Shown: piece after piece, positions 26,292 to 30,680 of the stretch
How the letters are laid out: the number at the start of each line of letters is the position of its first letter
Numbering within the stretch: position 1 is the first letter of the stretch
DNA from: Terriglobia bacterium
GTDB taxonomy: Bacteria; Acidobacteriota; Terriglobia; 2-12-FULL-54-10
Reading direction: 5' to 3'
Assembly: GCA_963666975.2 (NCBI GenBank)
Contig: CAXVYR010000004.1
Coordinates: 1,056,001-1,120,000, forward strand
DNA length: 64,000 nucleotides
Translations under genes and position numbers: made by a program
Notes under the pieces: model-generated
Databases searched by the model: none
Seen by the model: the letters and a program-made list of their open reading frames with translations, nothing else
What the model was told of the DNA's origin: nothing

Positions 26292-26888
26292 TTATGAATC
26301 AGAGGTGTGGGAGAGACGGTCGAGCAGCACGCTCAGAGGTTCCGCCTTGCTTGCCTGAACCGAAACGCCGTAAAGCTGATTCCGGTCGCTTTGCGGAACC
26401 AATTGGTAGCCTCCCTGGCCGAACAGCGCGTCCAGAGCTTGCCGAATGGCGGGTTGCAGTTGCTCATCCGTGGCGGGAGTATTGGGAGTCTCCAGACGGT
26501 CATTGAAGCGGAGGTCCAGCGAGTCGGTCCGGAGACGGACGCCTGGAGGAAACTCTTTCTCCGCCACCAGGAGGTTGGACAGCGCCAGACACCACTCGAT
26601 GGCAGAGAGAATTCTTGCCGGGTGGGAGCCGGTCAAGCCTTTTTTGGCGGCGTATAAAATGCCGGGGCCGGGGTCGCCCATGTCAAAGGAAAAGTTACAG
26701 CGCTGCCCAATCAGCACAATCCCAGGCCCCCGCGAGACATGCGCGTAGTCGGCCATGTCCACCCAATCGGCGGGATGGCCCTCTTGTTTGCGCCAGCGGC
26801 CAAAGATGGTAATGAAGGAATCCAGGCTGAGCGACGCAGGCGCATCGCTGCCGATTCTGATTTGAAGCCGCTGCAAGTCTTGGATCAA
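26292..26888 (-). CDS. hypothetical protein downstream of the sulfite reductase
   Basis: Open frame with DMADYAHVSRGPGIVLIG and FNDRLETPN; TTG start chosen to avoid overlap. Confidence 0.7.
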   Translation of the reverse strand: MIQDLQRLQIRIGSDAPASLSLDSFITIFGRWRKQEGHPADWVDMADYAHVSRGPGIVLIGQRCNFSFDMGDPGPGILYAAKKGLTGSHPARILSAIEWCLALSNLLVAEKEFPPGVRLRTDSLDLRFNDRLETPNTPATDEQLQPAIRQALDALFGQGGYQLVPQSDRNQLYGVSVQASKAEPLSVLLDRLSHTSDS

Positions 26889-26994
26889 ATTCGGAATCCT
26901 AAGCTTTCCTGAGACAAGAAGTGGAGTACGCAAAGCATGGCGAATAGTACGGCGCAGAGTTGCACCCACAACCGTGAACTGCCGGTGCAGCCCC

Positions 26995-29148
26995 TCAGGC
27001 CAGCGCGCCTCCCATGCGGCTGTACACGCCGTGAGCTTCCTCAATAAACAGTGTCGCCTCTTCCACGCGCTGATGGGCTTTTTCCGCGCTCAGGTTCTCG
27101 GGTCCCTCCCGGACGGCGCGGAAAAAGTACTCGCCGATCATGGGAATGAATTTGCCATTTTCGCCGAAGTGTTTGCGGAACTCCTCGACCGTATCATAGC
27201 GGTCGGAAAGCAGCAGCCCGCGGGTGAAAAGAAGTCCATCGGCCGCCTTTTTCATGGCCTGCAAGGCGGTGCCGGCTGCCTCCCCCAGGCGTCCCGCTTC
27301 CAGGTGCAGCGAGGCCTCAAACTCCATTCGGTCGGCATCCTCCAGCAGGAACTCTGCTTGGTCCACCACCTCCCCGGCGCATTCGCCCACACCGGTTGAC
27401 ACAAAGTAATCCCAATCCTGCCGGTTGTCCCGGTAATATTCCGGGTGTTCGTCGTACTCCGGCAAGTGCTCGAACTCGGCCAGTTCCTGCTTCATGCGGG
27501 CCTTGCCCAGCCGGTTGGTGAACTCGGTGAAACCTTCTGAACCGCTCCGTTCCGCCGTGTAGAGACCCGTCAGCTTCCGGACCACCGCCGGAGCGTCCTT
27601 GCTGGCAATCTTGCCCACCGAAAGGCCGAAGGAGGCGGCATTGCCCTCCGGCTTCCCTCCCAACACAACCTGAAAAATCGGCACGACATGCTGCCCCTTA
27701 CGGCGGCTGGACCCGAAGAAGCCGATATGGGCTATGTGGTGCTGCCCGCAAGCATTAAAGCAGCCGCTGATCTTAATGCGAACATCTTTCCGCTCCGCCA
27801 GATCTCCCATCCCGTTCTGAAAATCCTGGTGCAGGACGGCTGCCAGGCCCCGCGAGGAAGTAATCCCCAGCTTGCAAGAGTCCGTGCCGGGGCATGCAGT
27901 GATGTTGGCCATGCCCTCCGCCCCCGGCTGCGCCAGATCGAGCGCCGCCAGGTCTTGATAGAGCGCCGGCAGCTCGCCCGTGGGAACCCAGCGTATCAGA
28001 AGATTCTGGTCCACAGTGGTGCGGACGGTATCGTTGACATACTTGCGGCACACCCCGGCCAGAGAGTGCAACTGGCGGGCCGTGATGTCCCCCAGAGGAA
28101 GAAACACGGTCACCATCGAGTAGCCCTCTTGCGCCTGCGGACGCACATTCATCCGCATCCACTTTTGGAATTTGTCCGATGTGCCGGTCAGTTGCAGCGG
28201 CGAGCCGGGCTTCAGCGGCTTCTCTTGATCGGCTCCGGCTTCCGATAGGTGCTCGGTCCACTGCGGATCGTGAGGGAGCTTTTTGCGTTCTTCCCGGACT
28301 TGAGCGGCGAACTCGTCCATGCCGAGCTTTGCCACCAGGAACTTCATCCTGGCCTTGGCCCGGTTTTTCTTTTCGCCCAGCCGTGCAAATACGCGGGCAA
28401 TGGCCTGGGCCACGGGAAGCATCTCCCCGGCGGGAACAAAATCGCTGTAGAGCTTGGCTTGGTGGGGAATGGCCCCGAGCCCGCCGCCGAGGTAGACTTG
28501 AAATCCTCGCTGGAGCTTTCCGCTCTCTTCCCGCACCGCCGCGATGGCTCCGATGTCGTGAATGATGGCCAGCCCGCAGGGGTGCTGGCGGCAGCCGGAA
28601 AAGGCAATCTTGAATTTGCGCCCAAAATTCTGGGCATCGGGGTGGCGCAACAGAAAATAAGCCATCGCCCGTGCGTGGGGGGTTACATCAAAGGACTCGT
28701 CCGAGCAGACGCCCGATTGCGGGCAGGCGGTGACGTTGCGCACCGCGTTGCCGCAGGCCTCGCGCGTGGTGATGCCCGCCTCCGCCAGCCGGCGCATCAG
28801 GTTCGGCGTGTCGTTGATGTCCACAAAGTGAAACTGGATGTCCTGCCGGGTGGTGATGTGGCTGATCCCGTCGGCGTACTCCTCGGAGAGGTTCGCCAGC
28901 TCTTCCATCTGCCGTGTGGTCAGTATGCCGAGCGGGATCTTGATGCGCAGCATCTGCACCCCCGCCTGTCGCTGTCCGTAAACGCCGTGGCGGAGGCGAA
29001 ACTCCAGGAAGACCTTCTCCGGCATCTGCCCTTGCTGCACGCGGCGCAACTCGGTCTCATAGATGTCAATTTCTTCCCGGACCGCCTGTGGCAGATGCTG
29101 CCACCGCTCCGCTTGCTTTGCGGGTACCGATGCAGTTTGCTCGCTCAT
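26995..29148 (-). CDS. ferredoxin-type sulfite/nitrite reductase (siroheme, 4Fe-4S) with C-terminal helical extension
   Basis: GVYGQRQ, TTRQDIQ, RKFK, CPGTDSC and SGCFNACGQH. Confidence 0.92.
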   Translation of the reverse strand: MSEQTASVPAKQAERWQHLPQAVREEIDIYETELRRVQQGQMPEKVFLEFRLRHGVYGQRQAGVQMLRIKIPLGILTTRQMEELANLSEEYADGISHITTRQDIQFHFVDINDTPNLMRRLAEAGITTREACGNAVRNVTACPQSGVCSDESFDVTPHARAMAYFLLRHPDAQNFGRKFKIAFSGCRQHPCGLAIIHDIGAIAAVREESGKLQRGFQVYLGGGLGAIPHQAKLYSDFVPAGEMLPVAQAIARVFARLGEKKNRAKARMKFLVAKLGMDEFAAQVREERKKLPHDPQWTEHLSEAGADQEKPLKPGSPLQLTGTSDKFQKWMRMNVRPQAQEGYSMVTVFLPLGDITARQLHSLAGVCRKYVNDTVRTTVDQNLLIRWVPTGELPALYQDLAALDLAQPGAEGMANITACPGTDSCKLGITSSRGLAAVLHQDFQNGMGDLAERKDVRIKISGCFNACGQHHIAHIGFFGSSRRKGQHVVPIFQVVLGGKPEGNAASFGLSVGKIASKDAPAVVRKLTGLYTAERSGSEGFTEFTNRLGKARMKQELAEFEHLPEYDEHPEYYRDNRQDWDYFVSTGVGECAGEVVDQAEFLLEDADRMEFEASLHLEAGRLGEAAGTALQAMKKAADGLLFTRGLLLSDRYDTVEEFRKHFGENGKFIPMIGEYFFRAVREGPENLSAEKAHQRVEEATLFIEEAHGVYSRMGGALA

Positions 29149-29185
29149 TTACTCCCCCCTTTTATTCCCCTTTGTGGCGAAAAAC

Positions 29186-29224
29186 AAAAAACCCACCCCG
29201 GAGCGCTCTTCCGTGGTGGGTTTT
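29186..29224 (-). terminator. attenuator intrinsic terminator
   Basis: Minus strand AAAACCCACCACGGA-agagcgc-TCCGGGGTGGGTTTTTT, between the leader ORF and the reductase RBS. Confidence 0.85.
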
Positions 29225-29285
29225 CCTTGTAAAGATTATTTCTGAATGATCTTGTTAAGGACTAGCCATCCCCCACCCGCCGGAG

Positions 29286-29345
29286 CTACACACAACAACA
29301 GCAACAGCAGCACATGATCCGGCGAAGATGGGATTTCCCGCGCAT
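29286..29345 (-). CDS. poly-cysteine leader peptide MRGKSHLRRIMCCCCCCCV
   Basis: Seven consecutive mixed TGC/TGT codons, then GTG TAG, followed by antiterminator/terminator. Confidence 0.88.
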   Translation of the reverse strand: MRGKSHLRRIMCCCCCCCV

Positions 29346-29351
29346 CTATAT

Positions 29352-29380
29352 ATTTTCCCCTTCTGCCTAAGGCCAGTCAA
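29352..29380 (-). promoter_or_regulatory. putative sigma70 promoter of the leader
   Basis: TTGACT-N17-GAAAAT, then 6 nt to the ATG. Confidence 0.55.
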
Positions 29381-29518
29381 TAGGGAATTCACTTTGCCAA
29401 TCTGTTAAAAGAGCCAGCATCGCGGGAACTTTTTTTTCAAGTATCCATTTTTTCGAGTATCCATCGAGTCCCAGCGCCGTCGACGTCATCTGAGGCAACC
29501 AAGGTTGACACCAAGAGG

Positions 29519-29902
29519 CTACTCCTTGTCCTTCAACAAGGAGGATAAATCGGCGAACGGCTTGTAAGTGGCAGGTTGCTTTTTCTCGCCGATTGGTGTT
29601 GCCTCATCAGTTCCCCCTTCATTCCAATAACGACCGTGCTCATCATCGTGACAATAGAGACACAGGAGTTCCCAGTTGCGACCGTCGGGCGGGTTGTTGT
29701 CGTGGTTGTGGTCCTTGTGATGGACCGTGAGCTCACGAAGATTCTTAGGGGTAAATTCGCGTCCGCACCTGGCACAAATCCAGGGGTAGAGCTTGAGCGC
29801 CTGCTCCCGATAGCCCTGATTTCGCTGCTCCAGGATGCGGCGGGTCTCCGCGACGACCGGGTCCAACTTGTCGGGGTCTGGGCTTGTACGTTTCAATGGC
29901 AT
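29519..29902 (-). CDS. yajD: YajD-family HNH nuclease
   Basis: YREQALKLYPWICARCGREF...LTVHHKDHNHDNNPPDG.NWELLCLYCHD. Confidence 0.92.
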   Translation of the reverse strand: MPLKRTSPDPDKLDPVVAETRRILEQRNQGYREQALKLYPWICARCGREFTPKNLRELTVHHKDHNHDNNPPDGRNWELLCLYCHDDEHGRYWNEGGTDEATPIGEKKQPATYKPFADLSSLLKDKE

Positions 29903-30173
29903 TCACGCGCCCTTCCGCTTTCCCCGGACGGGACAAGCCTAACCCTTGTCTGCGATGGACTTGTTCATGACGCCTATCCTTTATCCTTTATCCTTCACAG
30001 GAAACCCTCGCGCAGACGACAGGAATGGCTCAATTAGACTGCCTCCCAACCTGCTGGTCAAGGGCAAAGCATCCTTTGGCAAAAAACCGTGCCGGGAAAG
30101 TTGTGACTTGGTCCCCACACGTTTTAGCCGAGCCGCGAGCGACTGGTCAGTTCCAGAGCGCTTCCGTAGCTTG

Positions 30174-30680
30174 TTAGAAAAGCCGGCTTCGGGGAAACTT
30201 CTTTTTTAAGTATCCGTCGAGCCCCAGCGCACGGCCCGCCGAAACTGCCACGAAAACCAGATGCAGGATGATAAAAATGCGGTTGATCCCCACCCGCGCC
30301 CCTCCGGCCGGGATGGCGACGGCGAGGTAGATGTTGAGATTGTAGAAGGCTCCAAACGAAGAGGCGATCCGGACCAGGCATCCCGACAGAAGGGAAAAAG
30401 CGATGGCGAGCTCGCCGAAACAAACCAGATAACTGAATACATCGGCGTTGGGGACGACCACGCCCAGGATGAAATCGCGGTGCCAGGAGATGGGATCGTC
30501 TGCAACCCCAGACAGCGTGCGGACCAGCGATTCCCCGCTTAAAAAACTTCCAGTCAGCTTCCGCCAGCCGACCAACAGGAAGTGGTAACCCACCATAATG
30601 CGCAGGATCGCCACGTATCCCAGGGCCGTATTCTGCCTGAAGTTGTCGGCGAGGAACGCCCGCGCACGATTCAGCAGCAT
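30174..30680 (-). CDS. DoxX/DoxD-family membrane protein
   Basis: ILRIMVG...GWRKL, GELAIA and AGRALGLD. Confidence 0.85.
   Translation of the reverse strand: MLLNRARAFLADNFRQNTALGYVAILRIMVGYHFLLVGWRKLTGSFLSGESLVRTLSGVADDPISWHRDFILGVVVPNADVFSYLVCFGELAIAFSLLSGCLVRIASSFGAFYNLNIYLAVAIPAGGARVGINRIFIILHLVFVAVSAGRALGLDGYLKKKFPRSRLF

Follow-up and report, generated by a model that had tools for sequence, protein, structure and literature searches.

The question raised by this locus is how a run of seven cysteine codons, set in a very small open reading frame directly ahead of a reductase gene, could govern expression of that gene. The locus lies within a 64,000-nucleotide stretch (the window) of the genome of a Terriglobia bacterium of the phylum Acidobacteriota (assembly GCA_963666975.2, contig CAXVYR010000004.1, positions 1,056,001 to 1,120,000 of the forward strand). 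On the minus strand of the window, a gene for a 717-residue siroheme/[4Fe-4S] protein of the sulfite/nitrite reductase family (26995..29148) follows a leader that holds the small open reading frame (sORF) and a hairpin. To our knowledge, the regulation of sulfur assimilation is essentially uncharted in the Acidobacteriota, an abundant and hard-to-culture soil phylum. Judged from its sequence, the leader is a real, conserved, cysteine-sensing attenuator, one of at least three in the genome. It is very probably a ribosome-mediated transcription attenuator that responds to how much Cys-tRNA(Cys) is available, and it suggests a definite mode of control, open to experiment, in which no transcription factor is required.

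Read along the minus strand, the leader opens with a sigma-70-like promoter site composed of a -35-like TTGACT hexamer (29375..29380) and a -10-like GAAAAT hexamer (29352..29357) separated by a 17-nt spacer. A promoter scan of 28800..29800 found this site (29380..29352) as the sole candidate, with 0.4 expected. Only six nucleotides, ATATAG, separate GAAAAT from the leader ATG, and these contain no Shine-Dalgarno-like sequence. The sORF (29286..29345) has 19 codons, from the ATG at 29345-29343 to a TAG stop at 29288-29286, and encodes MRGKSHLRRIMCCCCCCCV. Its codons 12-18 read TGC TGC TGT TGC TGT TGT TGT (29292..29312) and form the sensor, which lies in the loop between two segments termed regions 1 and 2. 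Region 1 (UCCCAUC..CGCCGGA, 29318..29333) covers sORF codons 5-10 and ends 5 nt 5′ of the first Cys codon. Region 2 (CUCCGGCGGGUGGGG, 29271..29285) is directly 3′ of the stop, the DNA CTCCGGCGGGTGGGG at 29285..29271 abutting the stop codon.

Regions 3 and 4 are the arms of an intrinsic terminator (29181..29225) with a 15-pair stem and a 7-nt loop, followed by UUUUUUGUUUUU. The hairpin, GAAAACCCACCACGGA-AGAGCGC-TCCGGGGTGGGTTTTT (29225..29187), runs into TGTTTTT and folds at -22.1 kcal/mol (z -2.9; 3 of 200 shuffles as stable). A simple terminator scan did not pick up the hairpin because of an internal A.G mismatch in the stem. The reductase start is 38 nt away, with the Shine-Dalgarno-like sequence GGGGGGAG of that gene at 29152..29159. 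Between regions 2 and 3 a central hairpin (29224..29261) is present in all folds of the full leader, of the leader without the terminator 3′ arm and of the footprint series; it contains the TAA at which the longer sORFs of relatives end. Numbered from the A of the AUG, the order is region 1 at 13-28, Cys codons at 34-54, stop at 58-60, region 2 at 61-75 and terminator at 121-159. A preliminary description of this DNA had claimed a 19-residue minus-strand reading frame with seven cysteines in mixed TGC/TGT usage, a TTGACT-N17-GAAAAT promoter and a strong terminator ahead of the reductase's ribosome-binding site; the frame is present at the claimed position, the promoter scan recovered the promoter-like site, and the terminator is found in the stable hairpin and U-tract upstream of the gene.

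The length of the Cys run is singular in this genome. Over 4,234,367 bases, a count on both strands and in every frame gives 610 TGY runs (Y, C or T) of three codons, 44 of four, 2 of five and 1 of seven, this last being that of the leader sORF. A chance origin of the Cys run was rejected on these genome-wide counts together with its conservation.

The segments around the sensor take up alternative partners in silico, in the trp-like four-segment layout of 1:2, 2:3 and 3:4 pairings. The minimum free energy (MFE) fold of the full 206-nt leader pairs region 1 with region 2 and forms the terminator (z -1.45; 17 of 200 shuffles as stable). Once the terminator 3′ arm is removed, region 2 pairs with the 5′ arm, CCCACC.CGGA. 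The 1:2 duplex, in which region 1 serves as anti-antiterminator, has an energy of -25.1 kcal/mol (6 of 200 shuffles as stable). The 2:3 duplex, the antiterminator, has an energy of -17.1 kcal/mol, matched by 6 of 200 shuffles in a first duplex run and by 1 of 300 mononucleotide shuffles in a second, which bears out the earlier claim that the segment after the stop can pair with the terminator 5′ arm.

Which of these pairings is available depends on the ribosome in the folds. Nascent RNA was folded up to just before the terminator 3′ arm with the ribosome footprint forced unpaired; the ribosome was assumed to cover about 12 nt on the 5′ side and 17 nt on the 3′ side of the first P-site base. 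A ribosome with the first Cys codon in its A site has a footprint of 19-48, which covers region 1, and leaves 10 pairs between region 2 and the terminator arm. At later Cys codons the footprint is shifted 3′ and 6-8 of these pairs form, and with the stop codon in the A site (footprint 43-72) there is one. The preliminary description had proposed that a stalled ribosome frees the antiterminator and that full translation covers it, and the footprint folds agree (10 vs 1 pairs).

The resulting switch would work as follows. Transcription would begin at or within a few bases of the sORF AUG, and a ribosome would translate the 19 codons. With Cys-tRNA plentiful, the ribosome would reach the UAG and its footprint would mask region 2; the terminator would form, and RNA polymerase would halt at the U-tract, short of the reductase gene. 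In the absence of a ribosome, region 1 would take up region 2 and the terminator would form too. With Cys-tRNA scarce, the ribosome would stall in the seven-codon run and cover region 1, leaving region 2 free to pair with the terminator 5′ arm once that arm is transcribed. Polymerase would then continue past the U-tract to transcribe the sulfite reductase gene and, behind it, the conserved open reading frame. In such a scheme, sulfur assimilation is most likely switched on only when cysteine-charged tRNA is short. What the analysis shows is the set of sequence elements, their retention together with the gene and the alternative pairings in silico; we infer the translation of the sORF, the position of the transcript 5′ end, the kinetic competition and the response to cysteine.

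The arrangement is conserved with the gene. The reductase protein was searched for in 61 genomes (the source genome and 60 relatives), with a match in 49, and upstream DNA was read at 29 loci, one fragmented match (L030) being left out. The nearest public loci belong to metagenome-assembled genomes (MAGs) labelled Acidobacteria bacterium or Terriglobia bacterium, which bears out the Acidobacteria-like lineage of the preliminary description. A Cys-rich sORF and a terminator-like hairpin lie 5′ of the orthologous reductase at 13/13 loci of the same family (L001-L011, L016, L017). The combination also occurs at 6 of the 16 other loci of the same class, Terriglobia (L018, L020, L025, L026, L028, L029), and is missing from 10. 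Among 80 metagenome loci, retrieved with the first 250 reductase residues and read by script, at least 30 carry it. Two of 48 script rows (L135, L162) were dropped as spurious, having weak hairpins and long reading frames without a Cys cluster, and the script finds the terminator in 46 related leaders. At six more Cys sORFs (L117, L129, L163, L164, L165, L173) it found no terminator.

The peptides themselves are variable. Same-family sORFs carry 3 to 11 cysteines clustered at the same place (3 to 13 over all leaders, metagenome included), with MHGKSHLRRMICCCCCCCM, MSGKAHRIRRFFCCCCCCCARHRRVGRASS and MSGKNHPGRTCCCCCCNCCCCCAQLRRVGPDST as examples and ..YCSRCCSIL and ..CTCC.. as weaker forms. Many metagenome leaders form a second subfamily, exemplified by MNQRRKFGACMCCCRSTAPVCGENA, with the same CCCACC...GGUGGG terminator core. 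The choice between TGC and TGT varies between close relatives, the residue remaining Cys, and 37 of 42 leaders have an AUG or GUG 10-12 codons ahead of the run and in its frame. Most relatives have an sORF that continues through region 2, where it reads ..RRVG.., to a conserved TAA whose TA is invariant in an alignment of 14 sequences (A1). In the window and in L002, L004 and L113, the stop precedes the region-2 nucleotide block. The block is thus conserved whether translated or not, and is therefore an RNA signal rather than a peptide.

Two further observations concern the upstream regions of orthologs. Five metagenome loci (L117, L121, L122, L123, L131) have another motif of ~30 nt, ..TAGTCTATAATRTCYATC.AGATTAGGGTGAT.., 10-45 nt before the reductase start, and its presence in orthologs that lack the Cys leader suggests an alternative regulation of the same gene in those lineages. 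At L008 (genome G003), what comes after the leader and terminator is a short remnant of the reductase start; the main match to the reductase sets in ~100 nt beyond it and contains one in-frame TGA, and a separate copy of residues 1-45 lies ~17 kb off on the other strand. This arrangement may be a rearrangement or an assembly issue.

The distance from promoter to sORF bears on how the ribosome would load. Of 46 related leaders, 43 have a TTGAC box no more than 130 nt ahead of the Cys run, and the distance between the two, measured in 42 leaders, is 60-96 nt and mostly 68-74. The gap that separates the best -10 hexamer from the earliest start codon in frame measures 5-7 nt in 14 of 42 leaders (6 nt in the window), 8-13 nt in 25 and more in 3, and none of the 42 gaps has room for a normally spaced Shine-Dalgarno sequence. 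Promoter geometry would place the transcript start at or beside the A of the ATG, and supports a leaderless or near-leaderless sORF as a probable trait of the family. For the sORF of the window, a strictly leaderless state is somewhat favoured. A check of sequencing runs listed no RNA run that contains this DNA.

Support for the antiterminator is thermodynamic and positional, rather than of the classical covariation kind. In L018, L020 and L025/L026 the sequences of regions 1, 2 and 3 have diverged and the three-way complementarity is retained. The 2:3 duplex has an energy of -18.5 kcal/mol in L018 (1 of 200 shuffles as stable), -23.5 in L020 (1 of 200) and -21.6 in L025 (7 of 200), and the 1:2 duplex of L018 reaches -28.5 kcal/mol (0 of 200). 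Duplexes between region 2 and the terminator arm, taken over 35 distinct arms, have a mean z of -1.59 against shuffles, with 31 of the 35 values negative. Columns were scored on a MAFFT alignment of 20 leaders (A2), where the terminator itself has 77% of cells paired, 55% best when slid, and a covariation of 0.141 vs 0.111 in shuffles (11 of 500 as high).

The same genome holds further leaders of this kind. A scan for the terminator core with Cys runs upstream found two more modules of Cys sORF and terminator, both outside the window and on the minus strand of contig C4. One, L189 (about 1,767,700-1,768,000), has the sORF MPLRLAFERGCCCPC.. and the hairpin CCCGCCGG..CCGGCGGG with a U-tract, and a TTGACG-17-TAATCT promoter-like site 8 nt before its ATG. 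It precedes the genes for ATP sulfurylase (sat; PF01747, PF14306) and phosphoadenylylsulfate/adenylylsulfate (PAPS/APS) reductase (cysH; PF01507), and is present in 3/3 genomes of the genus, the source genome included. In two other families the sat-cysH orthologs have Cys sORFs, and the pattern used found no terminator there. The other module, L190 (about 1,670,760-1,671,000; ..MACCCMCCCTSAGAGG.., terminator -26.5 kcal/mol), has a tentative start codon and 5′ end. It precedes the gene for a TauE/SafE-family membrane protein (PF01925), possibly the transporter of the pathway. The L190 module occurs in 6/6 same-family orthologs found, source genome included; its antiterminator has moderate support (16 of 300 shuffles as stable), and in one same-family genome TauE and sat stand adjacent behind a single leader.

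With two further Cys leaders before sulfur genes, the set therefore looks like a regulon. A wider proposal can be made tentatively, and we hold it to be possible though doubtful: sulfate assimilation in its entirety (TauE, sat-cysH, the reductase and its partner) would, in this bacterium and related Acidobacteriota, be a ‘Cys ribulon’ of leaderless or near-leaderless terminator-type attenuators, whose near-fixed geometry (68-74 nt; 10-12 codons) would reflect a mechanical need. If true, loading of a 70S ribosome at the extreme 5′ end would couple it to polymerase with no separate pause signal.

Several results weigh against attenuation by a stalled ribosome. On the A2 alignment the column-wise covariation of the two competing helices is not above that of shuffles: helix 2:3 has 74% of cells paired, 51% best when slid, and a covariation of 0.111 vs 0.107 (196 of 500 as high), and helix 1:2 has 67% paired, 53% best when slid, and 0.195 vs 0.179 (107 of 500). 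Of what the preliminary description proposed to look for in orthologous upstream regions, in-frame Cys runs are conserved, and covarying antiterminator stems do not stand out from shuffles. The helix cores are conserved, and in diverged leaders the register shifts, to which a column count is blind. A register-free swap test, in which the region-2 segment of each leader is paired with its own terminator arm and with those of other leaders, was not significant when first made (1386 of 5000 permutations), a null attributed to where the segment had been cut: the last Cys codon, used as the boundary, falls within region 2 in the second subfamily. A second swap test cut at the end of the last run of at least two Cys codons and used one representative for each of the 35 distinct arms; cognate pairs were more stable, with a centred difference of -0.95 kcal/mol (83 of 10000 permutations as extreme). 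This outcome rests on a second analysis choice, and its figures, with the mean z over the 35 arms, overstate the effect because kin are not independent.

Other adverse points concern individual leaders and the energetics. The duplexes of L006, L009, L011 and L017 are unconvincing singly (42 to 110 of 200 shuffles as stable), and the sat-cysH leader has no convincing antiterminator by the duplex method (268 of 300 shuffles as stable). Among the 78 closest orthologs on genome contigs, 71 have no Cys-cluster sORF by the filter used; these are mostly labelled Bryobacterales or Terriglobia, with some Planctomycetota, and the Cys sORF occurs in the 7 same-family loci only, L032 having been missed by the length filter. 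The ribosome-free nascent fold, with no footprint imposed, keeps 6 pairs between region 2 and the terminator arm. In the complete leader the terminator belongs to the MFE fold at every ribosome position. As the terminator always wins at equilibrium, the switch would have to depend on kinetic competition, as in classical attenuators: 2:3 would need to form ahead of synthesis of the 3′ arm.

The same elements could serve other ends. In mycobacteria, poly-Cys sORFs work by translational control (10.1101/834739), and here too, stalling in the Cys run could free the Shine-Dalgarno sequence of the reductase, with the hairpin and U-tract playing a minor part; such control could add to termination. 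The 206-nt MFE fold does join the 5′ part of region 1 (UCCC.UCUU) to a G-rich segment containing the reductase Shine-Dalgarno sequence (29153..29333). This pairing comes from the single fold of the window, whose energy is the unremarkable one given above, and the Cys tract folds locally rather than onto the Shine-Dalgarno region, which it precedes by 98 nt with the conserved terminator between them. A canonical intrinsic terminator with a long U-tract is kept in all same-family leaders, whereas the mycobacterial element is without one (10.1101/834739, PMC1262725). Translational control in place of attenuation is improbable, and the modelled pairing of region 1 with the Shine-Dalgarno region hints at a possible extra translational layer in readthrough transcripts.

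A reading in which the sORF is an independent small gene, encoding a metal- or redox-active Cys-rich micropeptide and ending in its own terminator, with the reductase transcribed separately, could point to the promoter-like site and terminator at the sORF and to an N-terminal MxGKxH.. motif common to several relatives. It is most improbable, given that the number of cysteines ranges widely, the remaining peptide varies freely outside the RNA-pairing segments, and the ‘..RRVG..’ block is kept as nucleotides even behind a stop codon. The hairpin stands so close to the reductase start, with no second promoter-like site in the region scanned, and the same design recurs before two other sulfur-assimilation operons of the genome. 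Similarly remote is the view that the element acts untranslated, as a riboswitch or as a protein-binding leader recognising UGY repeats, its reading frame being incidental. A UGY repeat is a simple RNA motif too, so third-position C/U changes alone cannot tell codons from repeat, but the run keeps its frame with a start codon in most leaders and its fixed distance from the TTGAC box, and the in-frame stop falls at one of two places, immediately ahead of region 2 or at the conserved TAA. An Rfam scan of 28000..30500 at E up to 10 returned chance-level matches and no family (best E 0.04, 21 bits vs a gathering score of 163). Ribosome-mediated attenuation stays the preferred explanation.

The principle has close precedents. 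Classical enterobacterial leader-peptide attenuators are of the trpL, hisL, leuL and thrL type. Like the trp and his leaders, the leader of the window has four segments with 1:2, 2:3 and 3:4 pairings and an intrinsic terminator before the first structural gene, and its stop codon is placed so that a terminating ribosome masks region 2. Unlike them, it senses cysteine, by its codons, ahead of sulfate-assimilation genes in the Acidobacteriota; its sORF apparently starts at or near the transcript 5′ end without a Shine-Dalgarno sequence; and most relatives have an sORF whose translation would extend through region 2.

That poly-Cys sORF attenuators are known in actinobacteria, as the preliminary description stated, finds support in 10.1101/834739 and PMC1262725. 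In the first, Canestrari et al. describe for mycobacteria a tested locus under translational control, which works through pairing of the Cys tract with the Shine-Dalgarno region and involves no intrinsic terminator, and several Cys-sORF operons per genome, termed a ‘ribulon’; in the same paper, uORF (upstream open reading frame) attenuation for cysteine is called undescribed to the authors' knowledge. As in that account, the present sORFs carry consecutive Cys codons near the end of an unannotated frame 5′ of cysteine-related operons, several per genome, and the signal would be Cys-tRNA availability read by the ribosome. They differ from what is described there in having a conserved terminator and antiterminator, in showing no sequence relationship and in belonging to another phylum. 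The Actinobacteria candidates of Seliverstov et al. 2005 (PMC1262725) are likewise short frames with Cys runs near the stop upstream of cys operons; they are reported to lack obvious terminators, and Rho-dependent termination was suggested, in contrast to the intrinsic terminator present and conserved here.

A further precedent is the uORFC-8-2 motif of cysS in Rhodobacterales (RNA Biol 2021, PMC8632094), a predicted ribosome-mediated attenuator whose uORF places its two Cys codons at positions 14-15, with an intrinsic terminator on the 3′ side. The combination of tandem Cys codons and a terminator is shared; compared by description, the present leaders differ in having 3-13 Cys codons, in preceding sulfite reductase, sat-cysH and TauE genes and in being acidobacterial, the published motif being reported from one alphaproteobacterial order only. 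The principle is therefore not new: it is textbook trp attenuator logic, and a Cys uORF with a terminator is already published for cysS (PMC8632094). Full-text literature accessible without subscription yielded nothing on a Cys leader attenuator in Acidobacteriota or before a sulfite reductase. Measured against the account in 10.1101/834739, the present leaders extend cysteine-sensing sORFs from the translational, terminator-less mycobacterial form to a terminator form at no fewer than three operons in one genome.

The leader also gives a functional label, sulfite rather than nitrite, to the unusual 717-residue reductase. The protein matches the Pfam families NIR_SIR and NIR_SIR_ferr, with two stretches each, and its best NCBIfam model, ‘NirA family protein’, is below cut-off. 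Among chains of solved structure, tobacco nitrite reductase and Mycobacterium tuberculosis NirA come nearest, the latter of which reportedly turned out to be a sulfite reductase. In a residue alignment the reductase has RKFKIAF opposite RKWNPCV of the wild-type tobacco enzyme (3b0g) and RKWKPCV of its mutant chain (3vlx). Lysine at the position of the tobacco asparagine is the sulfite-reductase state, and the tobacco N-to-K mutant is said to have been made to give sulfite-reductase-like activity. Because the reductase has K-F-K where tobacco nitrite reductase has K-W-N, and because Cys leaders also precede sat-cysH and the TauE-family gene, assimilatory sulfite reduction is the supported function and sulfite, not nitrite, the probable substrate, in keeping with the earlier suggestion. 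A C-terminal extension of ~160 residues beyond the NIR_SIR core (26995..27480, minus strand) is conserved in orthologs, whose matches reach residue ~711-717; it belongs to no known family, a sub-threshold HEPN match (E 0.047) being the only one.

Behind the reductase lies a second gene that is probably regulated by the same leader (26292..26891, minus strand; conserved part 26891..26295). It encodes a conserved protein of ~195 residues whose start codon is not fixed, and the leader ties this gene of no known family to cysteine synthesis. By tblastn the partner is directly 3′ of the reductase in 100 of 108 loci, in MAGs labelled Acidobacteriota, Planctomycetota and Poribacteria. Neither Pfam nor NCBIfam has a family that matches it, and an Atlas search returned only unnamed clusters from Acidobacteriota and Planctomycetota. 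Searches with its fold gave no clear relative, either in the PDB by Foldseek (best template modelling score, TM, 0.43) or in a wide VIA-align search (best Z 7.1, with TBP-like and AdoMetDC-like alpha/beta rows tied). The AlphaFold model behind these searches is confident (predicted local distance difference test, pLDDT, 93.4; predicted TM, pTM, 0.90), and invariant residues of the aligned part include W33, D45, D48, Y49, H51, R93, D131 and R132.

Apart from the leaders, the genome has many identical copies, spread over several contigs, of one 35-residue stop-to-stop frame, RENITFWNWVPREPKKPSRSFAKPTDRCCCRWWI (e.g. C2:1306-1314), which points to a multi-copy repeat or insertion element.

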